Shown here piece after piece: positions 4,199-50,714 of a stretch of 64,000 bases of DNA; positions within the stretch are counted from its first letter, which is position 1; every line of letters begins with the position of its first letter. Both the position numbers and the translations under genes were made by a program. Source of the stretch: a virus. The DNA is taken from IMG/VR virus record IMGVR_UViG_3300014565_000223; one strand, written 5' to 3'. Below the pieces are notes generated by a model. It was not told the origin of the DNA and ran no database searches. It was given only the letters and a program-made list of their open reading frames with translations.

Positions 4199-4258
4199 AA
4201 TTTAATTATACATGATTAATAAAATAAAATATTGAAAACGTAAAAGAGGAGTGGTATA

Positions 4259-4831
4259 ATGAAAACAGCAATTGGTTATAAGCTTTTTAGGGTGTCTAAA
4301 AAATATCCGGGGAAATTATTTCCTCTGTATGTAAATGCAAATACGAATATTCCAATTGGAGAATGGATTAGTGCAGAACCAGGAGAAAGATTAGAAAATG
4401 GAAAAGTAAAAAGTAAACTTGGGCCATTGAGATATCGTCCTGGCTTCCATATTAATGATGTAGCTCCGTATGTCTCACATATAGGGCAAAAGGTAAATGG
4501 CAAGATTACTTATATGCGGCCGGATACTGTATGGGCTATGGTTGAATATTGTATTGATCATGATTACTGTGAAGAAGCAGAAGCAAATGGGATTTCTGAA
4601 TCTGGAAAATTTAATTATATAAAAGCTGACTTAGATTATATTCCAAAACATGGATTTTACCGGTATAAAACGTCTCCTGTAATGACTGGAGAATGGATCA
4701 ATGCCGGAGAAATGAAAGTAATCAAGATATTAAGCGATCAGGAAGTCAAAGAAATTTGTGATTCATGTGGATCAGATTATTTACCTCGAAAAGAAACAAT
4801 TAATTTATCAGAATTTGGATTTGCAGCATAA
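4259..4831 (+). CDS. hypothetical protein (190 aa)
   Basis: AAAGAGGAG RBS. The motif TTTAATTATACA lies upstream at 4201. Confidence 0.5.
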   Translation: MKTAIGYKLFRVSKKYPGKLFPLYVNANTNIPIGEWISAEPGERLENGKVKSKLGPLRYRPGFHINDVAPYVSHIGQKVNGKITYMRPDTVWAMVEYCIDHDYCEEAEANGISESGKFNYIKADLDYIPKHGFYRYKTSPVMTGEWINAGEMKVIKILSDQEVKEICDSCGSDYLPRKETINLSEFGFAA

Positions 4832-4846
4832 GGAGGAAGTATTAAA

Positions 4847-5338
4847 ATGTCTAAAAAGAAACGAAGCACTATATCAAATTTTATATGCCCAGAATGTGGA
4901 CTTGAGTTCCCTATCCCAAGAAAAATTGGACAACAGAGAGAAAAGGGGCATATTAAAGATTTGTATTGTCCGATTTGTAATAAAATACAAAAATTTACAG
5001 AATATACATATAAGCAGTCTTATAAAACATTAGAAGGTGAAATAATAGAGGAAAAACCATTAACTGACTTTAAAATAATTATGGAGGATGGTCACTCAAA
5101 AGAAGAGACCATATCATATTTAAAAAATGGAGTTCTTGTTTTTGATAAAGAAGAATTTATTGAGAACTTTAATTCTTACATGATTGAATGGTGTTTTGAC
5201 AGAAGGCGAATTGAGAAATTGAAGAAGATGATAGATACAGGGGTTCCAATTCGTAATTGGGGAATAGTTACTAAAAATGGTAAAACTTATTATATTAGAT
5301 ATACTTGTTTAGAAAGGGGTAAGGTGATTTTAAAATGA
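4847..5338 (+). CDS. Zn-ribbon protein (CPECG...CPICN)
   Basis: AAGGAGGAAG RBS; two CPxC pairs. Confidence 0.5.
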   Translation: MSKKKRSTISNFICPECGLEFPIPRKIGQQREKGHIKDLYCPICNKIQKFTEYTYKQSYKTLEGEIIEEKPLTDFKIIMEDGHSKEETISYLKNGVLVFDKEEFIENFNSYMIEWCFDRRRIEKLKKMIDTGVPIRNWGIVTKNGKTYYIRYTCLERGKVILK

Positions 5339-6168
5339 GGTTAACAAAAGAAGAAGCCAGAGCATATAAGGGATATGCTCTAACTCCTAAGCAACTCATT
5401 GAGAAAGCAAAGAAATTTTATGATGATTTAACACCCGAAGAAAGAGATGAGGAATACATTGTCTATGGAAATAATATAAAATTTGAAAAAGTGGAGGTAG
5501 AAAGGCTTACTACTGGAGAATTTTATATGCGTTGTGTTAATGACATTGAAAAAAGATATGAAGAATTTAAAAATAGGGAACGTATTTACAATTCTTCAGC
5601 TGTAGCACCATATGATCCAAGATATAAAATGGATGATTTTACAGAATCAGAAAAAATGGTAAGTTTTCTATATTATTTAATGGACAATGGATTTTCTTTA
5701 GCAATATTATATCCTGAATATCCAATCGAAGTAATAGAAATGATTTTTTGGAGTATACCGGAAGTAAGAAAGACACCACAAGAAAGAGCAGCATCAAAAA
5801 TAACAGAAGAATATACTAAGTATATAAAACCAGGAGAAAAAAATGTCGGAGGAGCAGAACTTGTTAAAAGGAGAGCGAAAGCAAACCCACCACAGACTTC
5901 TTTGACTCCAGATGAAATTGCGAGTTTTGATCGTATGAGCGAAAAATGGCTAGTAAGATGGTGCAACTTTTCTACGAATTGGTTATGGGTAGCGCCATGT
6001 TTATTATTATGTATTGTGGTGAACAAAGGACTTATTTCAGCAATTGGATTACTTTTGTTTATGGGAATTGGAGAGTGGTATTCATGGAAAGTCAAGGAAT
6101 ATTGTAGTGTGATATTGCCATGGTATCAACAAGCTGGAATTATGTTAGAGAGGAGAATGAAGTTATGA
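5335..6168 (+). CDS. hypothetical protein with C-terminal transmembrane segments
   Basis: ATGA overlap with the previous gene; hydrophobic C-terminus. Confidence 0.5.
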   Translation: MRLTKEEARAYKGYALTPKQLIEKAKKFYDDLTPEERDEEYIVYGNNIKFEKVEVERLTTGEFYMRCVNDIEKRYEEFKNRERIYNSSAVAPYDPRYKMDDFTESEKMVSFLYYLMDNGFSLAILYPEYPIEVIEMIFWSIPEVRKTPQERAASKITEEYTKYIKPGEKNVGGAELVKRRAKANPPQTSLTPDEIASFDRMSEKWLVRWCNFSTNWLWVAPCLLLCIVVNKGLISAIGLLLFMGIGEWYSWKVKEYCSVILPWYQQAGIMLERRMKL

Positions 6169-7148
6169 ATGGAAGGTTGGAGCATGAATTAAAATTAAAT
6201 AAGAATGTTAAGAAAATTCTTAATGATATGCCACAATGCGTGAGTGATTTTTATATGAGTATTCAGGCTGTTCGCAGCCCGAATACTTGTTTAAATTATG
6301 TCAGAAAACTTCATCATTTCTTAGATTATATAGATGTAGAAGATATAAGCGAAATTGACGCAGATGATATCGCAAGGTATCTGGAGCATATTAAATACGT
6401 AAAAGATGGTAATGGTGAAATTAAAAAGTCGTCTGTGGCATATACTAAATTGGTATGTTGCACATTAAATAGGTTTTTTGATTTTTTGTATCGGAGAGGA
6501 GATATTGAAAGGAATCCGATGGACAATGTAAACCGGCCTATTAGAAAAGACTCGATTAAAAGAGTGTTTTTATCAATGGATGATTTAAATGGAATATTGG
6601 GTGCCGTAAAATATTCTTACATGCCAAAAGAATGGCATTCAAGAGATTATGCTATATTATATTTATTTATGGTTACCGGCATGAGAAAAACTGCATTAAG
6701 CGAAATTAACTTAAGTGATTTAAATTTTGAGACTCACAATTTGACTATTATCGACAAGCGAGATAAAGAACAGGTATATCAATTAAATGATGATTCCATA
6801 CGTGTATTAAGAGATTGGATCCTTGATCGAGATAAAATACTATATAATATGGGGATTAAAGAGGATGCTCTTTTTATATCAAAAAATGGAAAACGTATGG
6901 ATCCACAAACGATCTATTGTATGGTAGTCAAATATGCCGAGAAAGGAATTGGTAAACATGTGTCTCCGCATAAGTTAAGAGCTGCTTTTGCTTCATTATA
7001 TTATAAGGAGACAAAAGATATCGTTGCTACGAAAAATGCTGTAGGGCATGCGGATATACAGACAACCAGTATTTATACAGTTGAAGAAAATAACTCAAGA
7101 AAGGAAGCAACGGAGTTCATGTCGAAAAATTTATCATCAAAAATATAG
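6165..7148 (+). CDS. tyrosine site-specific recombinase / integrase (XerC/D-like)
   Basis: C-terminal HKLRAAFAS and GHADIQTTSIYT fit the R..HxxR..Y catalytic signature. ATG 6165 with GGAG RBS (track start 6120). Confidence 0.75.
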   Translation: MNGRLEHELKLNKNVKKILNDMPQCVSDFYMSIQAVRSPNTCLNYVRKLHHFLDYIDVEDISEIDADDIARYLEHIKYVKDGNGEIKKSSVAYTKLVCCTLNRFFDFLYRRGDIERNPMDNVNRPIRKDSIKRVFLSMDDLNGILGAVKYSYMPKEWHSRDYAILYLFMVTGMRKTALSEINLSDLNFETHNLTIIDKRDKEQVYQLNDDSIRVLRDWILDRDKILYNMGIKEDALFISKNGKRMDPQTIYCMVVKYAEKGIGKHVSPHKLRAAFASLYYKETKDIVATKNAVGHADIQTTSIYTVEENNSRKEATEFMSKNLSSKI

Positions 7149-7174
7149 ACAAAATTAACTTTGCGTGATATAAT
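7145..7174 (+). promoter_or_regulatory. sigma70-like promoter with extended -10 (TAGACA-18 nt-TGATATAAT)
   Basis: TGATATAAT at 7166-7174. Confidence 0.5.
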
Positions 7175-7186: not shown

Positions 7187-8467
7187 GTGAGAAAAATGAA
7201 TGTCGATAGAAGTATTTTAGAAGATTATTTATCCAAAAAGTTTTTTAATATCTTAATTAATAAGAGTGAAGAACTAGAAATTTACAATTATGCATATGAG
7301 AAATATAATTATCCAAAAGGCATTTTTTCAGATTTTCTATCTAGTAGAAAGAGTATTGAAGAAGCAAATGATTATACACTTTTTGTAATTGCAGATAGTA
7401 TTTTAAATGCCACTAAGAAAGATTATCGCAAAAAGTTATCTGACTTTTTTACAGACAGAGAAATAAGTAAATATAGTGGGATGCGATACGAAGAACCAAA
7501 TAAAATTGAATTCCCGTTAGTATTCAATATGATTCAGGTAAGCGATGATCAATGGATAGGATCTTTAAATGTAGATGCATTTTGCGCTCTGCAAGAATCA
7601 GGATTAATTAACTATAATCCTGTCACACAACGTGCTATGACTAAAGTAACACGAGATAATAATGAGCTATATCGTATTACATTGAATAAGAGTGCAGTAA
7701 AAGAAATTACGGCAGATATGTTGGAACATATTTATGTTCCGGATACAATCACTTTGAATATCCCGAAAGATGATATATACGCAGATTTTCATTATGATGA
7801 GCAATCACGTCAGCTTATTATTCATTCTTTAGAGGCATTTGATATAAACGATGGATATCATAGATATGTATCAATGTTCCAGGCCAGAAGTAAAAATCCA
7901 AATTTTAACTATCCAATGGAGCTGAGAATTACAAACTTTGACATTGATAAATCTCGCCGTATGATATATCAGTATGACCAGAAAACTAAAATGAGCAAAC
8001 AGTTAAGCGACACATATAACTCATATGCAGCTCAAAATAAAGTGGTCCAGCGTATTAATGAAAGCAGTATGTGTAATTTGCAAGGGAAAATAAAAATAGG
8101 TGGACTTATTGATTCAACAACCCTGGCAGAATGTATTAAGAGATTATATTTCAGTAAAAGGCAAAGTGATTCTCCTGAGCAACGAAAAGAAATCATTAGA
8201 GTATCAAAGGAATTTATCGAAGATCTTAATATGCTTACAGAAGAAGATGACAAGTATCTTGAAAAAGAATATTCAAAGAAAGAAATTATAATTCTTACGA
8301 TCTTGTTTCATTATTATGATGGAAAAAATAAAATATCAATGATAGAGAACTATAAGCGTTTTCTTATTGATGATGCGGAACGTGAGGAAAAAATAATATA
8401 TGATTTTTCGAGAAACTTTAATAGGATAAGGAAAAGATTAATTCCTTTTTTAGAGGAGAGAATGTAA
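7187..8467 (+). CDS. hypothetical protein with a DGxHR motif (DGYHRY), ParB-like / DndB-like
   Basis: FDINDGYHRY resembles the DGQHR / ParB-nuclease signature. Otherwise unrecognised. Confidence 0.3.
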   Translation: MRKMNVDRSILEDYLSKKFFNILINKSEELEIYNYAYEKYNYPKGIFSDFLSSRKSIEEANDYTLFVIADSILNATKKDYRKKLSDFFTDREISKYSGMRYEEPNKIEFPLVFNMIQVSDDQWIGSLNVDAFCALQESGLINYNPVTQRAMTKVTRDNNELYRITLNKSAVKEITADMLEHIYVPDTITLNIPKDDIYADFHYDEQSRQLIIHSLEAFDINDGYHRYVSMFQARSKNPNFNYPMELRITNFDIDKSRRMIYQYDQKTKMSKQLSDTYNSYAAQNKVVQRINESSMCNLQGKIKIGGLIDSTTLAECIKRLYFSKRQSDSPEQRKEIIRVSKEFIEDLNMLTEEDDKYLEKEYSKKEIIILTILFHYYDGKNKISMIENYKRFLIDDAEREEKIIYDFSRNFNRIRKRLIPFLEERM

Positions 8468-9379
8468 ATGTATAACGAAGATAGAAAACAAAGGTTTTAC
8501 GAATTTAAGTTAAAAACTGTTGCAAGCGTTACTCCTCTTGTGCCTAGATTTAAGAGAGTTGCGCCGTTTGAACATATGTATCAAAAGGATTTATGTGACT
8601 TTAATTTAAATGAGATTACAGAAATGTATAAGTTGTTCAAATTTACAACATTAGAGTCCATTATTGTAGTAAATAATACTCTTACACAATATACGGACTG
8701 GTGTGTTAATGAGAATTTAGTGTTAAATGGACAAAATATCTATGCAACTATCACACCTGATATGCTGGCAGCACTATTAAATAAGACATTGTTAAATCAT
8801 CAGATTGTATCAAGAGACACGATTTTAACATGGATCGAAGCATTAAAGAATCCTAGAGATCGATTCATGATTCTGAGCATTTTTGAATATGGCAAGTCTA
8901 AAGATTTTGAAGACACGATTAGAGCAAAACTTGATGATATCGACGTAGAAAATCATACAATGAAATTGTATTCCGGAAGAGTTGTAAATGTAAGTGAAGC
9001 ATTAATTTTAACTGCACAAAAGAGTAATATGACAATGGAATTAACATATCCATATGGAACTAAATCCAAACTCATGGATGATGGAACCATTATAAAAAGA
9101 TCTCATATTGTAAAAGATGATCCGCATTGTCTTGGAAGGCAAATGTATAATTCATTAGCAGCAGCATTGAAGTCTATAGATGTATCATATATGACTGCTG
9201 AAAAAATTAACATTTCCGGACAAATTCATATGACAAATGAATTAATCCGGAAGTATAATTCAAATAAAAACAAGATTTTATATGATGTTGAAACTCGGTC
9301 TATGATTGAACACCAATATGGAATTAAGATTAATAGACCTTCATATTTTCTTAAAAAATATGGTGACTATTTAATATAG
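8468..9379 (+). CDS. hypothetical protein (303 aa)
   Basis: TAAATG junction with the upstream gene. Confidence 0.5.
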   Translation: MYNEDRKQRFYEFKLKTVASVTPLVPRFKRVAPFEHMYQKDLCDFNLNEITEMYKLFKFTTLESIIVVNNTLTQYTDWCVNENLVLNGQNIYATITPDMLAALLNKTLLNHQIVSRDTILTWIEALKNPRDRFMILSIFEYGKSKDFEDTIRAKLDDIDVENHTMKLYSGRVVNVSEALILTAQKSNMTMELTYPYGTKSKLMDDGTIIKRSHIVKDDPHCLGRQMYNSLAAALKSIDVSYMTAEKINISGQIHMTNELIRKYNSNKNKILYDVETRSMIEHQYGIKINRPSYFLKKYGDYLI

Positions 9380-9452
9380 TCGCCATGTTTAAATAAAGTA
9401 ACAAGTTAAATTAACTTTCATTAAAATCAAATTTATTACGAGGAACAAAAAA

Positions 9453-9788
9453 ATGGTTAGAGAATTTGTAAAGAATGCAAGTAAAGTAGCTCAGAAAATC
9501 GATATTATGTTTGAAAAAGCAGCATATGACAATAAAACTGTTGCGGTACATTTCTCTGTAGGAGAAAAAGAATCTGCAATAATATCTCATATGCAGTTGA
9601 ATCCAGTTAATATTACAGTAAATGATAATATTATTACTTTTGAAGAGGGAACAGCAGAGCATTATATTGATATTTCTCAGTTTGATTCAGTCAAATGTGA
9701 TGACGAGTGCGTTAACGATATCGCGGATGCAACAATTGATATGATGTGTGATCATTGGTCAGTACATTTTGATATTTTGACGATTTAA
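9453..9788 (+). CDS. hypothetical protein (111 aa)
   Basis: ORF with RBS. Confidence 0.45.
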   Translation: MVREFVKNASKVAQKIDIMFEKAAYDNKTVAVHFSVGEKESAIISHMQLNPVNITVNDNIITFEEGTAEHYIDISQFDSVKCDDECVNDIADATIDMMCDHWSVHFDILTI

Positions 9789-9812
9789 TTATACATAATA
9801 CAGGAGGAAAAA

Positions 9813-11813
9813 ATGAACAAGATTGAAGAAATGAAAGCATTGGTTGAAAAACTTAATCAGTACCGAGATGCTTATTATAATAATGCAGAAAGTATTGTTA
9901 CGGATCATCAGTATGATGATCTGTGTGATCAGTTGGAAAAAATGGAAAAAGAAACAGGAGTTATTTTAAGTAATTCTCCAGTCCATAGTGTTGGATATGA
10001 AGTAAAAAGTAAATTAGAGAAAATTGAGCATTCACATTTAATGATGTCTCTTGATAAAACTAAAGATGTGAATATACTTCGAAAATTTATTGGTGATAAA
10101 GATTCTTTGCTAATGTGTAAGATGGATGGATTGACAATTCTTTTGACGTATGAAGATGGAGAGCTGATCCAGGCTGAAACTCGCGGAAACGGCGTCACAG
10201 GAGAAATTATTACTCACAATGCAAAGGCGTTCGAAAATATTCCTATGCATATTAATCAGAAAGGCCACGTTGAAATTGAAGGAGAAGCTATTATTACATA
10301 TACAGATTTTGAGAAAATTAATAATTTAATTAAACACGAAGAAGATAGATATAAGAACCCGCGAAATCTTGCTTCAGGATCAGTCAGACAGCTAGATAGT
10401 AAGATAGCAGCCAAACGTCATGTTCGTTTTATAGTATGGAAGGTACCTGCCGGTATGGATGAACTACCTTTAATGTCAGCAAGATTTGAAAAAGCAAGAG
10501 AACTTGGATTTGATATTGTACCCTATATTCGTGTATATAAAGAAAATCAGAATCTTGAAGAGCTTATTAATCTGTTAAAGGAAAAGGCAGCATACTTATC
10601 TTATCCAATTGATGGGCTTGTTGCTGCATATAATGATATCGCTTATGGATTATCACTTGGAGTCACAGATAAGTATCCACGTCATTCTCTGGCATACAAG
10701 TTCTATGATGATGAATTTGAGACAGTTTTGACTGATATTGAATGGACTATGGGTAAATCTGGACAATTAACGCCTACAGCAGTTTTTGAACCGGTCGATA
10801 TTGATGGAACATCTGTAAGCAGAGCGAGTCTACACAATGTGAGTATATTCAAAGGATTTTATCTCCATAAATATGATACCGTATCTGTGTATAAGGCAAA
10901 CCAGATAATTCCGCAGATTTCTCAAAACATAACAAGAGGTTATAATACCGGTGAAAAGTTTATAATTCCTAAAATATGTCCAATCTGTGGAGAACCAGTG
11001 TCTGTCGTAAAAGAGAACGATTCTGAAGTATTGATGTGCATGAATGCTGGATGCAAAGGCAAACTTTTGGGTGAGATGAATGCTTTTGTAGGGAAAAAGG
11101 CCCATGATATTAATGGATTATCTGAGGCCACATTGCAGCTATTGATTGATACTGGGCTTGTGACATCACCAATTGATCTGTATTATTTGAAGGATCATTC
11201 TACAGAATTGTCCAGATTACCTAGAATGGGAGCAAAGAAAATTGCGAATATTTTAGATTCTATTGAGTCTAGCAGGAATACTACCATAGAAAAATTTATT
11301 GTAGGATTAAATATTCCGTTAATTGGTGGTAGAGCTGCAAAGGATATTGCTAGATATGAAGAAATAAGAACCAGGGAATTAGGAATGCTATATCCATTTG
11401 AAACTTTTATTAAAGATGCTGCTTCTGATTTTAATTTTACCTGTATTGAAGGATTAGGGACGGAGCGAAATATTTCTATCCATAGATATTTTAAGGAAAA
11501 TTATGATTACGTTGTTGCTTTGGCAGAACAGTTCATATTTTCGAAACTTAATAATGATAAAATATCTTCTGAAAGCGATTCATTGTCCGGAAAGAAATTC
11601 TGTATCACTGGGAAGTTACATATTTTTGCTAACCGGGATGAACTTGTGGCGGATATAGAATCAAAAGGAGGGAAAGTTGTGTCCGGAGTTACAAAGGCAA
11701 CTGATTATCTAATTACCAATGATAAAAACAGTGGATCTAGTAAAAATAAGAAAGCTTCTGAGTTGAATATTCCTATTATCAGTGAAGAAGAATACAAAAA
11801 CAAATTAAATTAA
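9813..11813 (+). CDS. ligA: NAD+-dependent DNA ligase
   Basis: KMDGL adenylation motif, CPICGEP...C..C zinc finger, HhH region and C-terminal BRCT (GKKFCITGKL). N-terminus typical of LigA. Confidence 0.9.
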   Translation: MNKIEEMKALVEKLNQYRDAYYNNAESIVTDHQYDDLCDQLEKMEKETGVILSNSPVHSVGYEVKSKLEKIEHSHLMMSLDKTKDVNILRKFIGDKDSLLMCKMDGLTILLTYEDGELIQAETRGNGVTGEIITHNAKAFENIPMHINQKGHVEIEGEAIITYTDFEKINNLIKHEEDRYKNPRNLASGSVRQLDSKIAAKRHVRFIVWKVPAGMDELPLMSARFEKARELGFDIVPYIRVYKENQNLEELINLLKEKAAYLSYPIDGLVAAYNDIAYGLSLGVTDKYPRHSLAYKFYDDEFETVLTDIEWTMGKSGQLTPTAVFEPVDIDGTSVSRASLHNVSIFKGFYLHKYDTVSVYKANQIIPQISQNITRGYNTGEKFIIPKICPICGEPVSVVKENDSEVLMCMNAGCKGKLLGEMNAFVGKKAHDINGLSEATLQLLIDTGLVTSPIDLYYLKDHSTELSRLPRMGAKKIANILDSIESSRNTTIEKFIVGLNIPLIGGRAAKDIARYEEIRTRELGMLYPFETFIKDAASDFNFTCIEGLGTERNISIHRYFKENYDYVVALAEQFIFSKLNNDKISSESDSLSGKKFCITGKLHIFANRDELVADIESKGGKVVSGVTKATDYLITNDKNSGSSKNKKASELNIPIISEEEYKNKLN

Positions 11814-11822
11814 CTTTTACTA

Positions 11823-11851
11823 TTGACAAATGCAAATAATGGTGATATAGT
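11823..11851 (+). promoter_or_regulatory. sigma70-like promoter TTGACA-17-TATAGT
   Basis: Consensus -35, 17-nt spacer. Embedded in the repeat AAATTAAATTAACTTTTACTATTGACA. Confidence 0.6.
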
Positions 11852-11899: not shown

Positions 11900-12532
11900 A
11901 TGATATGTTACTATTTAAAAGGAAAAAATGGAGAGTACATCGCAAGAGATCCAACAGGAAGAATCAAATTAGTATCTGATCTTGGTGATGCACTCTTGGT
12001 TCCTGAAATTGAAAAGAAAAAGATTAAGGCAATTCAAGCAAATAATATTCCAGACGTATTAAAAAAATTTGGACCATATGAAATTTGTGAAACCGATTAT
12101 AATGGAGTTGAAGCAATTACGACAGATGATATAGTTGGTGAAATTATCGGTAGTATAAATGAATTTTCAAGTAAGATGAATGAAATTACTGATTATTCAA
12201 AAGAACTTAATTCTATTATTTCATATACTGATTTACAAATTTCAGACATTTTGCATTATATTGAATTTCATAAGTTTTCTGCGGCAGAAGGATATAAATT
12301 ATGCAAAAAGTTGCAAGAGATTTGTGATAGACGAAGAGAAGCCAAAAATAAAATACAAATTATAAACACGATAAAACATCAATCGTGTGCAAGTGTTTTA
12401 TCTGGAAATGCTACTAAAATAATAGAAAAAATTGTACCAGATAAAAAATATACTCCAAGAGTATTTGATGAATTGTTCAAAAAGAATCAGTCACGAATAA
12501 GAAAAGAAAAATCAGTGAAAATAAAAATTTAA
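11900..12532 (+). CDS. hypothetical protein (210 aa)
   Basis: ORF. Confidence 0.45.
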   Translation: MICYYLKGKNGEYIARDPTGRIKLVSDLGDALLVPEIEKKKIKAIQANNIPDVLKKFGPYEICETDYNGVEAITTDDIVGEIIGSINEFSSKMNEITDYSKELNSIISYTDLQISDILHYIEFHKFSAAEGYKLCKKLQEICDRRREAKNKIQIINTIKHQSCASVLSGNATKIIEKIVPDKKYTPRVFDELFKKNQSRIRKEKSVKIKI

Positions 12533-12555
12533 TTAAACAATAAGGAGATAAAAAT

Positions 12556-14622: not shown

Positions 14623-14655
14623 TACAATTTAATTAAACAAAGAAGGGAGAAAGTT

Positions 14656-18729: not shown

Positions 18730-18730
18730 A

Positions 18731-20943: not shown

Positions 20944-21036
20944 ATGGTCGCATTAAATATGGGAACATTTGTTGTATGCCTCGCGCTTGCCTTTCTGGCA
21001 GGTATTCTGGTTACAAAAATTAAATTAAAGAAATAA
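20944..21036 (+). CDS. 30-aa hydrophobic peptide (MVALNMGTFVVCLALAFLAGILVTKIKLKK)
   Basis: ATG 2 nt after the PspA-like stop; single TM. Not in track (<60 aa). Confidence 0.3.
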   Translation: MVALNMGTFVVCLALAFLAGILVTKIKLKK

Positions 21037-21048: not shown

Positions 21049-21570
21049 ATGGGATTTACATTATTTGGAGAAAAATATAAATATGAAGTAGACAGTATTA
21101 ATATTGGGATTTTTTGTCCAGATGGGACATTATTAATAGTTTTAAAACTTAAAGATGGTACATATAAATCAATTGATGTTAATCTTGGAGCAGAAAAATA
21201 TAAGTCATTATGCAAAGAGAATAACATTACAAACAATGTGCCGGTTCTTGTTACACAAGAACATGTTAATAAATTAGATAAAGAAATAAAACCTAAGTAC
21301 AAATGGGGAGACTGGAAAGAAGGTTACACTTTTTTTATGGATCCATTTTCTCGTAGAGAAAAACTATTAGTATATAATGTTAGAACTAATGGTAAGAGAG
21401 TGCAGGTAGAATTCGACGGTGTAAAAGCTATGGCTTCTTGTAATATTGAAGCAGGAGATCAATTTGATTATAAGTTTGGTAGGGAACTGGCAGAGCGAAG
21501 ATTGATTGCGAAATTGATTGAGAAACGTGCAAATTCATATTATATAAGCAAAATCAACAAAACAAATTAA
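21049..21570 (+). CDS. hypothetical protein (173 aa)
   Basis: AAGGAGAAAAATTATG RBS. Confidence 0.5.
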   Translation: MGFTLFGEKYKYEVDSINIGIFCPDGTLLIVLKLKDGTYKSIDVNLGAEKYKSLCKENNITNNVPVLVTQEHVNKLDKEIKPKYKWGDWKEGYTFFMDPFSRREKLLVYNVRTNGKRVQVEFDGVKAMASCNIEAGDQFDYKFGRELAERRLIAKLIEKRANSYYISKINKTN

Positions 21571-21584
21571 ATTAACTTTGCATA

Positions 21585-21613
21585 TTGACAAACGAAACTT
21601 GATATGCTATACT
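21585..21613 (+). promoter_or_regulatory. sigma70-like promoter TTGACA-17-TATACT
   Basis: Consensus hexamers. Part of the repeat AAATTAAATTAACTTTGCATATTGACA, upstream of the tRNA. Confidence 0.6.
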
Positions 21614-21710
21614 AAATACATAGTCAAGGATGACAACAGCACAGAGGAGTGAAAGCTCCCTGTGCTAAATAAAAAGAAGAAAGAAATTTAATTATACAAA
21701 CAATGAATGT

Positions 21711-21795: not shown

Positions 21796-21874
21796 TTTGG
21801 CAAGTATTTTATACAAATATACTCCAGCCGAATTGCAGAGAAATATAATTTAATTATACAAAAAGGAGATAAAA

Positions 21875-22993: not shown

Positions 22994-23160
22994 AAATTTA
23001 ATTAAACATTCCGATGAATAAAAACTTTAGATATGTGGAAGTTCGGTTATAAGCATGTGGCTTTCATTTTACTTTTTACCTCTTATAACTCGTTTGAAGC
23101 AGGTCTTACGAGTATAAATAAACTGTATAAGGGTAAGCCGGTAGTAACCTTATACAATAA

Positions 23161-25734: not shown

Positions 25735-25886
25735 AAATTGTAAAGTAATAAAATTTAATTATACAGGCACGTATAAATGAGGAATAGGAAATAATATTTG
25801 AAGCACTATCTTAAAAGATCAGTGCATAGATGTCAGTGTGACAATAAACTGCAAAGTTATTCCACTTCGGAAAGCGAGGTGAAATA

Positions 25887-28278: not shown

Positions 28279-28323
28279 CTATAATAATTAAATTATACAA
28301 AGTACAGAAAGGAAACAAATACT

Positions 28324-37320: not shown

Positions 37321-39618
37321 ATGAGTAAAAAAGAAGTGAAATTTAATTGTAAAATCGTAAAGTGTATGTATAATTCGGAGAATTACAAGATTTATGCTAC
37401 AGATGTAGATAAAAAAGAGTTCCCCAATATTAAACATAACAAATATGATAATGTCACCATTTATGGAGATGTACATAATTTAGTAGTTTCACAGTCGTAT
37501 GAAATTACGGCTGTGGAACAGCTCGATAAATATGGTTTTGGATATGATATTGTAAATGTGAGAATGGATAAGCCTAAAAATGAAGAAGAAGTTTATATGT
37601 TCTTAAGAGAAATTTTAACTGAGAACCAGGCAGGAGTACTTTGGCAGCATTATCCAGATATTATTGATATTGTGTTAAGGGGAGAAGCTGACACTGTTGA
37701 TCTTGATAAATTAAAAGGTATCGGAGAAAAAACATTTGAAACTATTAAAACAAAAATAGTTGAGAATTATTGTATCTATGATTTAGTAATTGAATTTGGT
37801 GGAATTCTCACAATGTCAATGTTAAAGAAATTATATGATGAATTTAAATCAATCCATAAAATGAAACAAGAATTAAGGAAGCAACCATATAAATCTTTGA
37901 CAAAAATATCTGGGGTAGGTTTTATTAAGGCAGATAGTATTCTCTTAGAATTGCAGAGACTCGGCAAGATCAATTTTCCGTTTGAATTAAAATCATCTGC
38001 GCAAAGATGTGCAGCATGTATGGAATATTATTTGGAAGAGAATCAAAAAGAGGGAAATACTAAAATGGATCTCCGCGATCTCAGAAAACAGGTTGTAAGA
38101 CTTGTTCCTGCTTGTTCATCACATTATGTTGAATGTTTAAAGGATCCAGATATTTATTATAACAAAGATACTTTTGAAGTATCTTTAAAAGCCACACATG
38201 ATACTGAAACTGCTATAGCTGCTATATTATTTGTAGCAAACTTAAAACCTAAAATATGGGATTTTGACTGGAAGAGTTATCAGACGTCGGGAGAGTATCA
38301 TTTAACTGACGAACAAACCAGTGCATTGGAATGTATATGTAACAATAATATTATGATACTGAATGGTTTTGCAGGATCAGGTAAAAGTGCCACTTCCGCA
38401 ATGATCATTAAAATGTTGGAGGATAACAATATTTCATATACTTTAATGGCTCCAACAGGACGCGCTGCAAAAGTGTTGAGTGATTATACCGGTAAGCCAG
38501 CGGCTACAATTCATCGTGGCTTAGGTTATATGCCGAAGAATAGGTGGGGATATGATAGTGAATGCAAACTCCCATTTGATGTTGTTCTTGTAGATGAATT
38601 CTCTATGACAGATATATTTCTGTTCTTACATTTGTGTGACGCAATTGATTTTAGCAGAACGAAACTTATTGTTGTAGGTGATTCAGCGCAGCTTCCATCT
38701 GTTGGACCGGGAAATCTACTTTATGATGTGATCAATTCATTTGTTATACCTACAGTGACTTTGAATCAAATTTTCAGGTATGCTGAGGGTGGGTTAATGA
38801 AAGTTGCTACTGATGTTAGAAATATGAAACCATATTTATATGATTTGAGTAATGGTATGGTAAAATTTGGCAAGGATTATACTTTTATTAATGCTAATAA
38901 TGAACAAGCAGTAAAATGTGCAATTGGATTATATCAGAAGCTTCTTTCTCAATATGTTCCTGAAGATATTCTTGTTCTATCTGCTTTCAATAAAGGTGAT
39001 TGTGGTACTATTGCAATTAATAATGCAGTCCAGAAAATTGCTAATCCAAACTATGGATCAGAAAAATGTATCAAATCTGGAGATACGACATATTACGTGG
39101 GTGATATAGTAATTCAGATCAAAAATAATTATGAAGCAGAAGTAGATATGGGGGATATGGAAATAGAAAATGCTTCTCAAAATGATGAACCTTCTATAGA
39201 TAAAACATTTATTCCTAATGGTATGTTAGGAAAGATTATTGATATTTATGACGAAATTGTTCCATATACAAATGAACATAAGACAGGCGCTATTATTGAT
39301 TTTGATGGTGTCAGAGTAAAATATGAAAAATCAGAAATGTCAATGTTGCTGCTTGGATATGCAATTTCTATTCATAAAAGCCAAGGAGGAAGTGCTAAGG
39401 TGACGATTACACTTACACCATCTTGTCATGCTTATATGATGAATTCTAATTTATTATATGTGGCATTAACACGTACAAAAGAAAAATGCTTTCATATTGG
39501 AGATAAAGACACTGTAAACAGATCCATTAAAAAGAAAGAGAATTTTAAGAGGAACACTTTTTTATTAGATATATTAAAGAAGTTAAAAATTAAATTAAAC
39601 AAAAAGGAGAGCAAATGA
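37321..39618 (+). CDS. RecD-like / SF1 5'-3' DNA helicase
   Basis: Walker A GFAGSGKS, Walker B VLVDEFSM, C-terminal SF1 motifs (SIHKSQGGS). ATG 37321 (track start 37315 is GTG). Confidence 0.8.
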   Translation: MSKKEVKFNCKIVKCMYNSENYKIYATDVDKKEFPNIKHNKYDNVTIYGDVHNLVVSQSYEITAVEQLDKYGFGYDIVNVRMDKPKNEEEVYMFLREILTENQAGVLWQHYPDIIDIVLRGEADTVDLDKLKGIGEKTFETIKTKIVENYCIYDLVIEFGGILTMSMLKKLYDEFKSIHKMKQELRKQPYKSLTKISGVGFIKADSILLELQRLGKINFPFELKSSAQRCAACMEYYLEENQKEGNTKMDLRDLRKQVVRLVPACSSHYVECLKDPDIYYNKDTFEVSLKATHDTETAIAAILFVANLKPKIWDFDWKSYQTSGEYHLTDEQTSALECICNNNIMILNGFAGSGKSATSAMIIKMLEDNNISYTLMAPTGRAAKVLSDYTGKPAATIHRGLGYMPKNRWGYDSECKLPFDVVLVDEFSMTDIFLFLHLCDAIDFSRTKLIVVGDSAQLPSVGPGNLLYDVINSFVIPTVTLNQIFRYAEGGLMKVATDVRNMKPYLYDLSNGMVKFGKDYTFINANNEQAVKCAIGLYQKLLSQYVPEDILVLSAFNKGDCGTIAINNAVQKIANPNYGSEKCIKSGDTTYYVGDIVIQIKNNYEAEVDMGDMEIENASQNDEPSIDKTFIPNGMLGKIIDIYDEIVPYTNEHKTGAIIDFDGVRVKYEKSEMSMLLLGYAISIHKSQGGSAKVTITLTPSCHAYMMNSNLLYVALTRTKEKCFHIGDKDTVNRSIKKKENFKRNTFLLDILKKLKIKLNKKESK

Positions 39619-40388
39619 AGTCAGAATTATTTAAAAACGAATTAAAAACAATTACTTCAGATGATATTCGTGATTTTGCAAAAGTTGTTTTGGACGATGC
39701 CCCAGACTATTTTTTCAAAGTTGCGGCAAGTTCTACAGGTAAATATCACCCGGCATACGCGCTGGGTGATGGCGGTTTAATGCGTCATACAAAAGCAGTA
39801 TTAAGGATTTACAATTATATCATCGGATTAGAACAGTACCAGAATCAGTTTGATGAGAGATGGATAGATCTTGGACGTGTTGCTTGTTTGGCACATGATA
39901 TTCAAAAGTCTGGTACTGCAGAAATATATGAAGAAAAGGCAAAGGATGGAAAAAAGGTGTTTACTGTATTTAATCATCCGTTGTTGGCAGCAGAATATAT
40001 TCGTAATTATAAAGGATTATATCTCGAAGATGATGAACTTGAGATTATTGCTGATGCTGTTTCGTCTCATATGGGACAATGGAACACAAGTGATAGAGAA
40101 AGTATTGTATTACCAAAGCCAAAATCACAGTTAGGGAAAATTGTACATGTAGCAGATTATTTGGCTTCCAGAAAAGACATTGATATTTCTTTTAAAGATG
40201 ATACTGATGCATATGATTTACCGGATATTGAGACATACAAATGTCCATACAAAAAGCATAAGGATGAATTACTGACAGATGTTGCAAAGACAGATCCTGA
40301 GTATCTGGAGTGGCTACATGAAAATGTTAATATGAGAGAACCTATGAAAACATTCGTAAATGAACTTTTAAAAAATAAAACAAATTAA
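39615..40388 (+). CDS. HD-domain phosphohydrolase
   Basis: H...HD metal-binding signature (KYHPAY...LAHDIQK). Confidence 0.65.
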   Translation: MKSELFKNELKTITSDDIRDFAKVVLDDAPDYFFKVAASSTGKYHPAYALGDGGLMRHTKAVLRIYNYIIGLEQYQNQFDERWIDLGRVACLAHDIQKSGTAEIYEEKAKDGKKVFTVFNHPLLAAEYIRNYKGLYLEDDELEIIADAVSSHMGQWNTSDRESIVLPKPKSQLGKIVHVADYLASRKDIDISFKDDTDAYDLPDIETYKCPYKKHKDELLTDVAKTDPEYLEWLHENVNMREPMKTFVNELLKNKTN

Positions 40389-40402
40389 ATTAACTTTTAC
40401 TA

Positions 40403-40431
40403 TTGACATCAGAAACCTATAGTGCTATTAT
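40403..40431 (+). promoter_or_regulatory. sigma70-like promoter TTGACA-17-TATTAT
   Basis: Consensus -35. Within the repeat CAAATTAAATTAACTTTTACTATTGACA. Confidence 0.55.
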
Positions 40432-40479
40432 AATGGCACAGGGAAAACAAATTAAATTAACTCAAGGAGATATGTAGAC

Positions 40480-42024: not shown

Positions 42025-44198
42025 ATGTAGTTAAAAAGGATTTAACAGTTGAACCTTTTGACGATCAGAAAATTGTTGATGCTGTAAATAAGTCAGCATC
42101 ACGAGTAATGGTCGAGTTAACAAATGATGATTATAAAAGAATCATAGATCTTGTTTGGGACGAGCTTATTGCTGATGATATAGATGAAAATACCACATGT
42201 ACAGTAGAAGAATTACATAATGCAGTAGAATCCGCATTGGATGAATTTAATCCAAAGATTGCAAAATCTTATAAAGATTATCGTAATTATAAGAAAGAAT
42301 TTGTTCATATGATGGATGACGTTTTCACCAAGAGTCAGGCTATCCGCTATATTGGTGATAAGAGTAATGCCAATACAGACAGTGCGCTTGTAGCTACAAA
42401 GCGAAGCCTGATCTTTAATGAACTGAACAAAAACTTGTATAGAAAATTCTTCATGACAAGAGATGAATTACAGGCATGCAAGGACGGATATATTTATATT
42501 CATGATCAGTCTGCCAGACTTGATACTATTAACTGTTGCTTATTTAGAGTTGGAGAAGTTATGAAAGGCGGATTCGAAATGGGAAATGTCTGGTATAACG
42601 AACCAAATTCTCTTGATACTGCGTTTGATGTTATGGGTGATATTATCCTGAGCACTGCTGCACAGCAGTATGGCGGATTCACAGTACCGGAAGTAGACAA
42701 GATTTTGGAACCATATGCAGAAAAAAGTTATCAGAAATATTATAAAGAATTTTTGGAAATCTTTTATTCTGATATTGATGGTGTATATATTGATGTGCTT
42801 TCAACATCTGAATATAAAATTGCAGAAAAAGCATGTGAATATGCAACTGAAAAAGTTAAAAGAGATTTTGAACAGGGATGGCAAGGAATTGAGTATAAGT
42901 TAAATACCGTAGGATCATCAAGAGGCGATTATCCATTTGTAACAATGACATTCGGTCTCTCAACCACAAAATTTGGTAAAATGGCTTCTATTACATTCTT
43001 AAATGTTCATAAAGAAGGCCAAGGTAAAGCCGGTAATAAGAAACCTGTGTTATTCCCCAAATTGGTATTTTTATATGATGAGAAGTTACATGGACCAGGA
43101 AAGGTTAATGAAGATGTATTTAATGCAGGTATTGAATGTAGTATGAAGACAATGTATCCAGACTGGTTATCTCTAACAGGTGAAGGATATGTACCAAGTA
43201 TGTACAAAAAATATGGTACGGTTGTTAGTCCAATGGGGTGTCGCGCATTCTTAAGTCCTTGGTATGAAAAAGGTGGAATAGAACCGGAGGATGAGAACGA
43301 TAAAGCAATTTTTGAAGGACGTTTCAATCTTGGTGTTGTAAGCCTTCATCTTCCAATGATTTTGGCAAAAGCGCAGCGTGAAAGTAGAGATTTCTATGAA
43401 GTATTGGATTATTATCTTGAGATGATACGTAGCATTCATAAGAGAACATATGACTATATTGGTGAAATGAAAGCTAGTACGAATCCATTGGCATATTGTG
43501 AAGGTGGCTTCCTTAATGGTTATTTAAAACCAGATGAAAAAATACGTTCAATTCTTAAACCTATGACTTTATCATTTGGAATTACTGCTTTGAATGAATT
43601 GCAGGAACTTTATAATAAGAAGTCATTAGTTGAGGATGGTAAGTTTGCTGTAGATGTAATGAAATACATTAATAAAAAGATTACTCAATTTAAACATGAG
43701 GACGGATTATTATATGCGATTTATGGAACACCAGCAGAGAGTTTATGTGGACTGCAGGTGGAACAGTTCCGTAAGATGTATGGCATTGTGAAAGGAGTTT
43801 CTGATAGAGAATATGTAAGCAATAGTTTCCACTGCCATGTAACTGAAGATATTACACCAATTCAGAAACAAGATCTGGAAAATAGATTTTGGAATCTGTT
43901 TAATGGCGGCAAAATCCAGTATGTACGTTATCCGATCAATTACAATCGTGAAGCTGTTGTTACTTTAATCAGAAGAGCAATGAAGATGGGATATTACGAA
44001 GGTGTCAATTTGGCGTTATCTTATTGTGAACATTGTGGCTATGAAGAATTAAATATGGATATGTGTCCTAAATGTGGCAGCGAAGACATTACAAAGATAG
44101 ATCGCATGAACGGATATATTGGTTATACTCGTGTTCACGGTGATACAAGATATAATAAAGCGAAAATGGCTGAAATTGCAGAGAGGAGATCGATGTAA
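42021..44198 (+). CDS. nrdD: anaerobic ribonucleoside-triphosphate reductase (class III)
   Basis: N-terminal ATP-cone-like region; C-terminal Zn site CEHCGY...CPKCGS; glycyl-radical-like RMNGYIGY, then a conserved basic tail. 725 aa. Confidence 0.85.
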   Translation: MNVVKKDLTVEPFDDQKIVDAVNKSASRVMVELTNDDYKRIIDLVWDELIADDIDENTTCTVEELHNAVESALDEFNPKIAKSYKDYRNYKKEFVHMMDDVFTKSQAIRYIGDKSNANTDSALVATKRSLIFNELNKNLYRKFFMTRDELQACKDGYIYIHDQSARLDTINCCLFRVGEVMKGGFEMGNVWYNEPNSLDTAFDVMGDIILSTAAQQYGGFTVPEVDKILEPYAEKSYQKYYKEFLEIFYSDIDGVYIDVLSTSEYKIAEKACEYATEKVKRDFEQGWQGIEYKLNTVGSSRGDYPFVTMTFGLSTTKFGKMASITFLNVHKEGQGKAGNKKPVLFPKLVFLYDEKLHGPGKVNEDVFNAGIECSMKTMYPDWLSLTGEGYVPSMYKKYGTVVSPMGCRAFLSPWYEKGGIEPEDENDKAIFEGRFNLGVVSLHLPMILAKAQRESRDFYEVLDYYLEMIRSIHKRTYDYIGEMKASTNPLAYCEGGFLNGYLKPDEKIRSILKPMTLSFGITALNELQELYNKKSLVEDGKFAVDVMKYINKKITQFKHEDGLLYAIYGTPAESLCGLQVEQFRKMYGIVKGVSDREYVSNSFHCHVTEDITPIQKQDLENRFWNLFNGGKIQYVRYPINYNREAVVTLIRRAMKMGYYEGVNLALSYCEHCGYEELNMDMCPKCGSEDITKIDRMNGYIGYTRVHGDTRYNKAKMAEIAERRSM

Positions 44199-44835
44199 TA
44201 TAACAAAAGATTTTCGAGAATATATTGGACGAGAATATACTACTAACGAAGGATATAAAATTACCATTTTAGATTATATTGGAAGACATGAAATTTTAAT
44301 AAAATTTAATGATAATCCAGATGTTACTATTTGGACAACTTTACAAAATATCAAAAATGGTCAGATAAAAAATCCATATAAAAGGTCTGTATATAATATA
44401 GGATATTATGGAGTTGGTAATTATACCGCTAGAAATAATAATATAAAAACAGAAGAATATATCAAATGGATTAGCATGTTTGTTCGTTGTTATGATGATA
44501 AATATCATGAAAGACAACCCTCATATATAGGATGTACTGTAGCAGAACCATTTCAAAATTTTCAAATTTTTGCTGAATGGTATAACCATAATATATATGA
44601 ATGTAATTATCCATTAGAACTTGATAAAGATTTCTTATATGAAGGTAATAAAATATATTCGCCTGCAACGTGCTGTTTTCTACCTAAAGAAATAAATACT
44701 GCAATTAATTATAAAAGACATGATGTTGAATATATGCAAAAATTATATTTGAAATATAAAATGGAATTACCTTATAGACTACGTATGGAATTATATTATG
44801 TTTCTCATCCTAAAGAAATTAAGAAAGCGAGTTAA
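44119..44835 (+). CDS. freestanding ORF inserted between nrdD and nrdG, possibly homing-endonuclease-like
   Basis: 640-nt insertion between genes that are usually adjacent. Overlaps the nrdD 3' end in another frame; no obvious ATG or RBS (TTG/GTG candidates only). YIGREYTTNEGYKITILDYIG reminiscent of phage HNH-type endonuclease N-termini. Confidence 0.3.
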   Translation: MVILVFTVIQDIIKRKWLKLQRGDRCNITKDFREYIGREYTTNEGYKITILDYIGRHEILIKFNDNPDVTIWTTLQNIKNGQIKNPYKRSVYNIGYYGVGNYTARNNNIKTEEYIKWISMFVRCYDDKYHERQPSYIGCTVAEPFQNFQIFAEWYNHNIYECNYPLELDKDFLYEGNKIYSPATCCFLPKEINTAINYKRHDVEYMQKLYLKYKMELPYRLRMELYYVSHPKEIKKAS

Positions 44836-45357: not shown

Positions 45358-45425
45358 TAAGCTATTATAGCTTTGATATAAAAATTTAATTAAACAAAAC
45401 ACAGAGAAAAAGGAGAACTAAAAAC

Positions 45426-46406: not shown

Positions 46407-46420
46407 TAATTTAATTATAC

Positions 46421-46445
46421 GGTATGCGTGAGAAAACGCATACCG
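46421..46445. other. 9-bp perfect hairpin GGTATGCGT-GAGAAAA-ACGCATACC without U-tract
   Basis: Sits immediately after an AATTTAATTATAC motif. Confidence 0.4.
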
Positions 46446-49375: not shown

Positions 49376-49833
49376 TGGTAGATATATCAGAACTTACAGA
49401 AAGTGTTAAGGGTTACATTGAAGGATTGCAAGCTGTATTACAAAGAAAATATCAAATTTCAGAAGAGAAGGCTTTAAATATGATTACTTCTTCTTATATT
49501 ATGGATTCTCTTATAGATTACCCAGAAGAGACGTTACATGATGATATTGAAGCACATGCAGATAATATATATGAAGACCAAGTATCAAAAACAGAACGGT
49601 TATTGTTAGAGGCCGGATACGAGGGAACGATATTTTTTACAAATCCATCTTATGAAGATGCATTTCTTGGTATTTCTTCTGATGATAGAGCAATATATGA
49701 TTACGAAAAAATGGTTGAATCTTTAGTTAACCATGAGGATATGACAGAAGATGAAGCTAGAGAATTTATAGATTACAATGCGACGTTCTATATTGAAGGT
49801 GGACCAATTATTTTGTATAGACTGGAGGAATAG
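49375..49833 (+). CDS. acidic hypothetical protein (152 aa)
   Basis: ORF. Confidence 0.45.
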   Translation: MVDISELTESVKGYIEGLQAVLQRKYQISEEKALNMITSSYIMDSLIDYPEETLHDDIEAHADNIYEDQVSKTERLLLEAGYEGTIFFTNPSYEDAFLGISSDDRAIYDYEKMVESLVNHEDMTEDEAREFIDYNATFYIEGGPIILYRLEE

Positions 49834-49835
49834 TA

Positions 49836-50192
49836 ATGCCGGAACGTAACAGAGGGTATTTGAGAAAGCAAAGACTACGAAATATTGAACGTAGAAAAAA
49901 ATTAATAAGTCAACGAGAACTTATGTATCATGGATATAAAACTTTGAACGATCCTGATTTTAAAGAGGGGATGTTACATAAAGGACACAGTGGACGACTT
50001 GGCATGGGTGGAACTGCAGTAAAAACTAATACTCGTAAAGGACATGCTTCATATCGACATAAAGGTGCTTATGGTCAAGCTGATAATTATTCAAGACATG
50101 ATAAGCAGCAAGTTGAAGATGGAGCACAGCAAATTAAAGAATGGGAGAACGAAGATGGAAGAAGAGAAAAAGAAGGTTCTGATTGTAGTTGA
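49836..50192 (+). CDS. small basic protein (118 aa)
   Basis: Arg/Lys-rich N-terminus. Confidence 0.4.
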   Translation: MPERNRGYLRKQRLRNIERRKKLISQRELMYHGYKTLNDPDFKEGMLHKGHSGRLGMGGTAVKTNTRKGHASYRHKGAYGQADNYSRHDKQQVEDGAQQIKEWENEDGRREKEGSDCS

Positions 50193-50706
50193 TGTACAGA
50201 ATGATTTTGTAACCGGTTCACTTGGTACGCCGGAAGCCCAAGCTATTATTCCGAATGTAAAAGAGAAATTTGATGAATATAAGAATAATAAGAACTATGT
50301 AATTCTTACAAAGGATACTCATCATTCAGATTACGCAGATACTTCAGAGGGCAGAAAACTTCCTGAACATTGTATGTATGGTACTAAAGGTTGGGAAATT
50401 GTTGATGAACTTGATTATAAAAATCTCGATAGTTTTATGGTATGTTGTAAATCTACTTTTGGATTTGATGACTGGAATTGGGAAGAAATATTTAATACTA
50501 CAGATGGTTCTTTATTAGATATTGAAATTATTGGCATATGCACAGATATCTGTGTTATTACGAACGCTCTTTTGATTAAAACTTATTATCCAGAGGCAAA
50601 AATCACAGTTGATGCGTCATGTTGTGCCGGAACTACACCGGAGAAGCATAAAGCAGCACTTGATGTCATGGAAAGCTGTCAAATTAATGTGATAAATAAA
50701 AATTAA
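50155..50706 (+). CDS. isochorismatase-family hydrolase, nicotinamidase (PncA)-like
   Basis: LIVVDVQNDF N-terminal signature; catalytic Cys context IGICTDICV. ATG 50155. Confidence 0.65.
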   Translation: MEEEKKKVLIVVDVQNDFVTGSLGTPEAQAIIPNVKEKFDEYKNNKNYVILTKDTHHSDYADTSEGRKLPEHCMYGTKGWEIVDELDYKNLDSFMVCCKSTFGFDDWNWEEIFNTTDGSLLDIEIIGICTDICVITNALLIKTYYPEAKITVDASCCAGTTPEKHKAALDVMESCQINVINKN

Positions 50707-50714
50707 ATTAAACA

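Follow-up and report, generated by a model that had tools for sequence, protein, structure and literature searches.

Recurrent AT-rich boxes in a large phage genome are probable binding sites of its MrpR/SroF-family repressor

In the Bacillus phage SPbeta, the repressor MrpR occupies a 15-bp element, SPBRE, at 10 intergenic peaks found by chromatin affinity purification sequencing (ChAP-seq), and electrophoretic mobility shift assays and reporter fusions confirm its binding and repression (PMC10516654). In phi3T, SroF clamps as a monomer an asymmetric A-tract box of 24-26 bp that is present at many genomic sites, and different SPbeta-like phages use different boxes, with no cross-repression between them (bioRxiv 10.1101/2025.11.27.690993). 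Dispersed sites of this kind are also described for the gp71-type repressor of Cluster A mycobacteriophages (L5, TipsytheTRex), a monomer that recognizes an asymmetric site at more than 20 positions, in promoters and in short intergenic gaps; there, repressor and site have diversified into immunity groups (PMC9283540, PMC6550527). In L5 the orientation of the sites is tied to transcription, and the block to elongation is orientation-dependent (PMC9283540). Here we analysed 64,000 nucleotides of viral DNA (IMG/VR record IMGVR_UViG_3300014565_000223; this whole stretch is called the window below), in which an AT-rich word, AATTWAATTAWACA, recurs in front of genes. A first-pass annotation had regarded the word as a probable promoter for a phage-directed transcription apparatus. 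Our comparison suggests that it is, with good probability, the box bound by the lysogeny repressor that the phage itself encodes, a 303-amino-acid (aa) protein of the MrpR/SroF (YopR) family. This reading is favoured over that of a phage promoter because the protein is homologous to MrpR and SroF, whose boxes were shown experimentally.

A recurrent, oriented box at gene starts

With up to one mismatch, AATTWAATTAWACA has 16 matches in the window, 16 of 16 on the plus strand, compared with 1.52±1.30 in shuffled sequences. A weight matrix for the box, built on 14 sites, gave 19 matches on the plus strand and none on the minus strand (0-6 in shuffles). Strong copies lie mostly outside coding sequence (13 of 15; binomial P = 3e-15), and the 3′ end of the box is no more than 45 nt upstream of a gene start in 11 of the 15 (P = 1e-10). 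In nine copies this end is separated from the core of the Shine-Dalgarno (SD) sequence by 2-13 nt. The conserved length is about 19 nt (ATAAA followed by AATTWAATTAWACA) and the element is asymmetric; no conserved -35-like element was found upstream of the boxes. Conservation among near-identical phages is confined closely to the word: box columns are variable at 3 of 238 positions, against 144 of 1360 in the flanking 40 nt on either side (Fisher p = 1.4e-7).

The recurrence of the word noted in the first-pass annotation is therefore real, and all 13 of the positions listed there hold the motif within 0-2 nt. The two sub-types that it had distinguished also exist: the window contains 14 boxes of a first form and five of a second form, CAAATTAAATTAAC, all on the plus strand (Table 1). 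The variants that it had placed at 9400 and 7151 turned out to be a second-form copy (9402-9415) and a half box within a promoter of the TAGACA-17-TATAAT type, respectively. Boxes beyond those already listed were found at 9782 and 21018 (first form) and at 11801, 21563 and 40381 (second form), and more occur in the 20 kb upstream of the window. An equal frequency of the motif inside coding regions had been named as an observation that would speak against that proposal; this is not what we see, as the sole exact intragenic copy, at 10323, is unconserved. The variability of that copy among relatives (Table 1) indicates that it arose by chance and stands outside the system.

The box also precedes a tRNA gene and is thus not a translation signal. 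Chi-like or KOPS-like polar words, iterons, parS and recombinase arm sites were rejected as identities for the motif, its copies being found only at gene boundaries and spread over more than 80 kb. We also dropped the view that the AATTWAATT core is palindromic and bound by a dimer, since SroF binds its asymmetric box as a monomer.

The candidate repressor and the boxes of sister lineages

The protein that we propose to bind the box is encoded within the window (Table 1). It matches Pfam family PF22822 (MrpR_N_CB) at 1e-16 (61.8 bits; cut-off 27), and the only chains in the PDB matched by its sequence are those of SroF and YopR/MrpR. A profile made from three gut-phage repressor alleles, when searched against the whole PDB, gave the same answer: it hit only SroF (9rd5; 5.5e-20) and SPbeta YopR/MrpR (~5e-15), over positions 1-281, and no true recombinase. 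As to a possible loss of the catalytic tyrosine and of the recombinase active site, the 303-aa protein has no match to PF00589, whereas the neighbouring YopP-like gene matches it strongly (3.5e-26). The C-terminal 20-30 residues of the repressor fall outside the alignment, and a single-sequence AlphaFold model, with a pLDDT of 33, was unusable.

The genomic setting agrees with the homology. Genes 6165-7148, 7187-8467 and 8468-9379 are contiguous, and their order is that of the last genes of the SPbeta repressor operon, yopP-yopQ-yopR. A YopP/YopQ/MrpR-like trio is also annotated in Geobacillus virus E3 (GP148-146). In 41 kb of the E3 sequence (NC_029073.1, 86126-127007) we noted a plus-strand word of its own, ATTGAATAAAA, which stands at gene boundaries at least 15 times. 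Phages with this trio may in general have recurrent boxes. In the window, the gene that immediately follows the repressor gene, behind a box (9453-9788), encodes an acidic 111-aa protein that has no match in Pfam. Each lineage has a small gene at this place, and the 111-aa protein is a candidate antirepressor by position.

We mapped SPBRE in the SPbeta record as CAAATACAAAWAATATGTATA, and its orientation is always that of the downstream gene. It is found inside TAGACA-17-TATAAT promoters (yonP, yorZ, yorE, yosX and yorM), directly before the SD sequence (yopV, yopM and yonX) or before the -35 (aimR), and these are the same three contexts as those of the boxes in the window. The window resembles SPbeta and phi3T in several further respects: a full-length homologous repressor has YopQ-like and YopP-like genes upstream in matching order; an asymmetric AT-rich box (15-26 bp in those phages) has many dispersed intergenic copies in the early arm, in the orientation of the genes; some copies lie inside or adjoin sigmaA-type promoters (most first-form boxes of the window have no -35), and others are right before the SD sequence; and the box differs between phages along with the repressor. 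Unlike in SPbeta, the repressor is only ~19-28% identical to YopR, the likely host is an anaerobic low-GC Firmicute and not Bacillus, and no arbitrium genes were seen in the window.

A further indication that the box belongs to the repressor comes from sister lineages. These share with the window a DNA polymerase III (PolIII) that is 74-79% identical, or a ligase that is 62-69% identical, but their repressors are only 33-37% identical. The box of the window is absent from the sister lineages, and each has its own recurrent plus-strand word at equivalent positions. In L075 this is TGWTTTAATCAA, with 10 copies, located before the ligase, 688-aa and Tad2-like genes, before a tRNA and before three TTGACA promoters. 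The box of L094 and L019, AATAAATTTKAT, is set in a TTGAMA-17-kATnTn frame, and that of L063, TAAACTAATTAA, twice forms the -10 of a TTGACA promoter. The boxes of L022 and L018 are AATAATGTAAAATTT and AATATTAAAA, respectively.

Across the lineages, boxes occupy orthologous sites upstream of the ligase gene, the 688-aa gene and the tRNA, downstream of the repressor gene, and around matching promoters. In all lineages examined for that position the repressor gene is followed by a box; thus L075, L094 and L063 have lineage-specific boxes at the place equivalent to 9402. The box and promoter at 11801 have their orthologue at 11999 in L075, orthologues of box 21685 precede the tRNA in L075 (21652) and L094 (21921), and box-promoter-box units orthologous to 40381-40461 are present in L018, L019 and L022. 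Within the window's own group, where repressors are 92-100% identical, the box is kept, even at a ligase identity of 85-89%. The box thus changes together with the repressor allele (four lineages, with distinct boxes at orthologous sites), as would be expected of an immunity determinant and the sites on which it acts. A second, alignment-based search for more repressor lineages added none, and loci L108-L129 have only a 148-aa protein in common, with no repressor homologue.

Proposed operators and stoperator-like boxes, and other readings

Three of the second-form copies have their TTAAATTAAC core at a constant 18 nt upstream of the -35 of the window's three best sigma-70-type promoters. Two of these promoters, 21585 and 40403, are followed by another box (21685, ahead of the tRNA, and 40448, ahead of the ThyX-like gene), which results in a box-promoter-box unit. 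A fourth strong promoter, that of the repressor operon (7146-7174), has a half box in its spacer. All boxes and the associated features are listed in Table 1.

Table 1. Boxes, host-type promoters and repressor-operon genes of the window
Feature	Sequence	Position	Strand	Context
Box, first form	AATTTAATTATACA	4199..4212	+	46 nt upstream of start codon of gene 4259; matrix score 24.0
Box, first form	GATTTAATTATACA	9782..9795	+	6 nt upstream of SD of NAD-ligase gene 9813; lineage-specific box at equivalent place in L075
Box, first form		12526..12539	+	2 nt upstream of SD of 688-aa gene 12556; orthologous box L075 12814
Box, first form		14626..14639	+	3 nt upstream of SD of Tad2-like gene 14656
Box, first form, one mismatch	AATTAAATTAAAGA	21018..21031	+	upstream of gene 21049
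Box, first form		21685..21698	+	12 nt upstream of tRNA-Gln (21710-21796), downstream of promoter 21585-21613
Box, first form		21847..21860	+	2 nt upstream of SD of AAA ATPase gene 21875
Box, first form		22995..23008	+	head of tRNA-Leu/tRNA-Met region
Box, first form		25752..25765	+	121 nt upstream of RNA ligase gene 25887
Box, first form		28286..28299	+	upstream of AAA_24 (YorG-like) gene 28324, head of replication module; orthologous box L022 4402
Box, first form		39588..39601	+	within 3′ end of helicase gene; 2 nt upstream of SD of HD-domain gene 39615
Box, first form		45383..45396	+	upstream of gene 45426; TTGATA-17-TATAAA directly 5′; orthologous box L022 19693
Box, first form, ends ACG		46408..46421	+	followed by hairpin, then SD of gene 46462; orthologous box L022 20710
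Box, first form		50701..50714	+	2 nt upstream of SD of gene 50730
Box, second form	CAAGTTAAATTAAC	9402..9415	+	directly 3′ of repressor gene, upstream of acidic 111-aa gene 9453
Box, second form	CAAATTAAATTAAC	11801..11814	+	TTAAATTAAC core 18 nt upstream of -35 of promoter 11823-11851
Box, second form		21563..21576	+	core 18 nt upstream of -35 of promoter 21585-21613; orthologue L075 21531
Box, second form		40381..40394	+	core 18 nt upstream of -35 of promoter 40403-40431
Box, second form		40448..40461	+	between promoter 40403-40431 and SD of ThyX-like gene 40480
Chance copy of exact motif		10323..10336	+	inside ligase gene; variable at 8/14 positions among relatives
Host-type promoter, TG-extended	TTGACA-17-TATAGT	11823..11851	+	
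Host-type promoter, TG-extended	TTGACA-17-TATACT	21585..21613	+	
Host-type promoter, TG-extended	TTGACA-17-TATTAT	40403..40431	+	
Host-type promoter, TG-extended	TAGACA-17-TATAAT	7146..7174	+	half box AAATTAACTTTG in spacer; promoter of yopQ-like/repressor operon
YopP/SroD-like tyrosine recombinase gene		6165..7148	+	Pfam Phage_integrase 3.5e-26
YopQ/SroE-like (DndB-type) gene		7187..8467	+	Pfam DndB; BLASTP against SPbeta YopQ 1e-13
MrpR/SroF (YopR)-family integrase-fold repressor gene, 303 aa		8468..9379	+	proposed box-binding protein; Pfam PF22822

From the behaviour of the motif, the homology and synteny of the repressor gene and the co-variation of the two, we infer that the protein physically binds the boxes, represses from them and blocks elongation at some. 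The phage itself would be temperate, large (~145-175 kb) and of siphovirus type, with a low-GC Firmicute as its host and SPbeta as a distant relative. One repressor monomer would clamp each asymmetric AT-rich box, as may be expected from SPbeta and phi3T. Operator boxes would be those located 18 nt upstream of the -35 at 11823, 21585 and 40403, just downstream of promoters 21585 and 40403, and in the spacer of 7146, and the repressor bound to them would shut off initiation. Stoperator-like boxes, the majority, would be those placed in the short gap before the next ribosome-binding site, in the direction of transcription and without a promoter of their own. On these the repressor would most likely stop read-through RNA polymerase, as the stoperators of L5 do. 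It is the layout of the L5 sites (in promoters and gaps, oriented, and with an elongation block) that leads us to propose the gap boxes as roadblocks in the lysogen. Predicted intrinsic terminators in the window are not above chance frequency, so that long read-through transcripts are plausible and a roadblock would be useful. Alternatively, the repressor at gap boxes might occlude very weak promoters that lack a -35, in which case the hexamer nAnAAT at the 5′ edge of the box would serve as a -10-like element and the start would fall near the ACA end. All boxes together would silence early, replication and auxiliary genes over about 85 kb of the prophage, and the diverged repressors and different boxes of the sister lineages would place these in separate immunity groups.

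The likeness to Cluster A stoperators is functional only: we found no gp71-type repressor (helix-turn-helix plus stoperator domain) in the phage. The fold of that repressor differs from the integrase fold here, and its sites are GC-rich, 13 bp long and belong to actinobacteriophages. More speculative than the assignment of the boxes to the repressor, and on balance doubtful, is that an integrase-fold repressor, bound genome-wide as monomers in a single orientation, halts elongating host RNA polymerase at 25 or more SD-proximal boxes, or that the boxes are -35-less promoters in need of a lineage-specific protein as specificity factor.

Several observations weigh against the boxes being repressor sites. 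Most first-form boxes are without a recognisable host-type promoter within 60 nt upstream, and their role as operators therefore rests on the idea of an elongation block, taken from an unrelated repressor family. The density of boxes (19 in 64 kb, with more upstream) is about twice that in SPbeta; another difference from SPbeta is that most boxes here lack an adjacent promoter. In 13 of the 14 boxes the 5′ edge, nAnAAT, is a -10-like hexamer, which would also suit a promoter. The C-terminal family PF22823, listed for the protein in the precomputed record, was not reproduced by our own hmmscan at E ≤ 0.01. Unlike SPbeta, the window has neither a LexA box (GAACN4GTTC) nor a recognisable Sar antirepressor; a LexA-controlled Sar gene near the repressor gene is, however, a mark of the induction switch and not of the pair of box and repressor. 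Lineage L130/L095 has a repressor homologue, but no clear box was found in it. Finally, the YopQ-like gene is also divergent between lineages (40-45% identity), so that the co-variation with the box is not exclusive to the repressor.

The -10-like edge is one of the features that would suit a compact promoter read by a sigma factor, RNA polymerase or activator that the phage encodes outside the window, with transcription starting at the ACA end and yielding short leaders. Such a promoter could account for the strand specificity and compactness of the box, its closeness to the SD sequence, its presence before a tRNA and its lineage-specific sequence. At 46408, moreover, a hairpin begins exactly at the 3′ end of the box, where a 5′ stabiliser would sit. 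In these respects the box is like the promoters of phage-specific systems (T4 late TATAAATA with gp55, the T7 type, and SPO1 gp28/gp34), in which a short, conserved and strand-specific word has a fixed place before many genes. SPbeta-like phages also own a polymerase, YonO; however, it reads the late genes of SPbeta as a single operon, with its start upstream of yonK, and not from many promoters in the early region (PMC5467207).

A cognate factor was sought by Pfam scans of all plus-strand genes in the 64-kb window and in the 20 kb upstream of it (loci L100 and L141, 10 kb each), which together make up about half of the genome. They gave no sigma or RNA polymerase domain. The remark of the first-pass annotation that no RNA polymerase subunit is recognisable in the window thus agrees with our scans, and the search beyond the window that it had recommended also gave none; the 20 kb upstream contain a reverse transcriptase, an Ant-domain protein and proteins with domains of unknown function only. 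The 688-aa protein (12556-14622) was considered as a hidden RNA polymerase and rejected, being without similarity to YonO and common to hundreds of unrelated lytic phages. In addition, and unlike the word of a phage-specific promoter, the box is found on both sides of strong host-type promoters, and its homologues in SPbeta and phi3T were shown to be repressor sites. We therefore consider a phage-dedicated promoter improbable. What stands of the first-pass proposal is a phage-specific, strand-oriented signal for the control of transcription at gene starts, whereas its assignment to a transcription apparatus of the phage is not supported, given the lack of a sigma factor or polymerase in these scans and the evidence for repressor boxes.

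Slightly less probable still is that the boxes, or the second form CAAATTAAATTAAC alone, are bound by another phage protein, namely the YopQ/SroE-like protein of the DndB type encoded at 7187-8467, whose counterpart in SPbeta-like phages is a second repressor. The window has two slightly different forms of the box, with different contexts, and the YopQ-like protein shows the divergence between lineages mentioned above. SroE is needed for lysogeny and has no known target (bioRxiv 10.1101/2025.11.27.690993). In the sister lineages, however, a single form of the box serves both contexts, and the boxes of SPbeta were pulled down with MrpR itself (PMC10516654). An action of the motif in RNA, as a translational operator or a sequence-specific RNase cleavage site just upstream of the ribosome-binding site, would suit its AU-rich composition, its restriction to the coding strand and its place immediately 5′ of the SD sequence at nine sites, but is very unlikely given the copies in front of a tRNA and 18 nt ahead of a promoter -35, Rfam matches that are tRNAs only, the DNA nature of the homologous element, and the lineage-specific switching of the box, which a host RNase would not explain.

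Two potential RNA structures were noted beside boxes. A perfect 9-bp hairpin at 46420-46445, GGTATGCGT-gagaaa-ACGCATACC, begins at the final bases of box 46408 and has no T run after it; a role as 5′ stabiliser or regulatory stem is possible. The leader of about 65 nt between promoter 21585-21613 and box 21685 (21620-21684), upstream of tRNA-Gln, contains the stem CACAGAGGAG-tgaaa-GCTCCCTGTG.

The phage and its proposed immunity system

The window has 33% G+C and a strongly positive GC skew. Its credible genes are all on the plus strand and have strong SD sequences, and non-coding DNA makes up 5.4%. Replication and repair genes include those for the PolIII alpha subunit, a DnaB-like helicase, a RecD-like helicase and an NAD-dependent ligase, and the order of the replication genes at 28324-37312 matches that of SPbeta yorG to yorL. 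Metabolic genes comprise the anaerobic ribonucleotide reductase NrdD/NrdG, a P-type ATPase and a large set for NAD metabolism; four tRNAs are present. Since the phage carries NrdD/NrdG, an anaerobic low-GC Firmicute is its likely host.

Near-identical relatives in IMG/VR amount to dozens of contigs of 145-175 kb, and a near-identity search of GenBank phages gave no match. The closest cultured relatives are large siphoviruses of Clostridioides and Bacillus, with PolIII identity of only 37-45%. The identical sequence of the 303-aa repressor is indexed in 9476 blocks of a public assembly collection, which indicates that the phage is very widespread. It was found on contigs of up to 405 kb, and 151 blocks have contigs of 0.2-1 Mb. 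As these far exceed the size of the phage, it apparently occurs as a prophage. Together with the tyrosine recombinase gene in the window and a gene with a P22 Ant-type antirepressor domain upstream of it, the long contigs point to a temperate lifestyle, as far as this can be read from sequence. A search of genome contigs with the phage ligase had as its sole match a cellular ligase (52% GC) of Candidatus Merdisoma, and no prophage.

We noted several other features of this genome. The 873-aa P-type cation-transporting ATPase is followed by vWA-TerF-like, TerD-like and PspA/IM30-like genes (16108-20942), a membrane and stress module that is unusual in a phage. NAD and anti-defence genes are dense at 14656-15150, 23834-24613, 25887-26807 and 50071-61507. 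The set comprises Tad2-like, ADP-ribosylglycohydrolase, RNA ligase, nicotinamidase-like, PRPP-synthetase-like, NAMPT, Tpt1/KptA, NAD synthase and NMNAT-like genes, and has the appearance of an answer to defence systems that deplete NAD. In some near-identical phages the NAD-ligase gene is interrupted by a 186-aa open reading frame (ORF) for a NUMOD4/HNH homing endonuclease (at ~5484-6044 in L135, L137 and L139; also in L077-L090), and the ligase match in the interrupted copies spans 2569 nt, against 1998 nt in the others. A 238-aa ORF with a TTG start (44119-44835), which lies between NrdD and NrdG, overlaps the end of NrdD and has no match in Pfam, may be another homing endonuclease. Upstream of the window, locus L100 encodes a reverse transcriptase (208-1503, 9 kb from the window start; RVT_1, 5.7e-20) and the protein with the P22 Ant N-terminal domain (3151-4347, 6 kb from the window start). 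Both genes stand among further plus-strand genes that bear boxes.

The system of an integrase-fold repressor and its boxes has been worked out only in SPbeta-like phages of Bacillus, and here it would operate in a large prophage whose host would be an anaerobic Firmicute. The many boxes right before ribosome-binding sites, with no promoter near, give rise to the idea that this repressor family may block elongation in the manner of mycobacteriophage stoperators. If true, this would be a genome-wide stoperator mode that has so far been shown only for the unrelated gp71 repressors of those phages. The boxes would also show which genes the lysogen keeps silent, and the pair of box and repressor would provide a simple sequence read-out of immunity groups among closely related phages, that is, of which prophage should exclude which.

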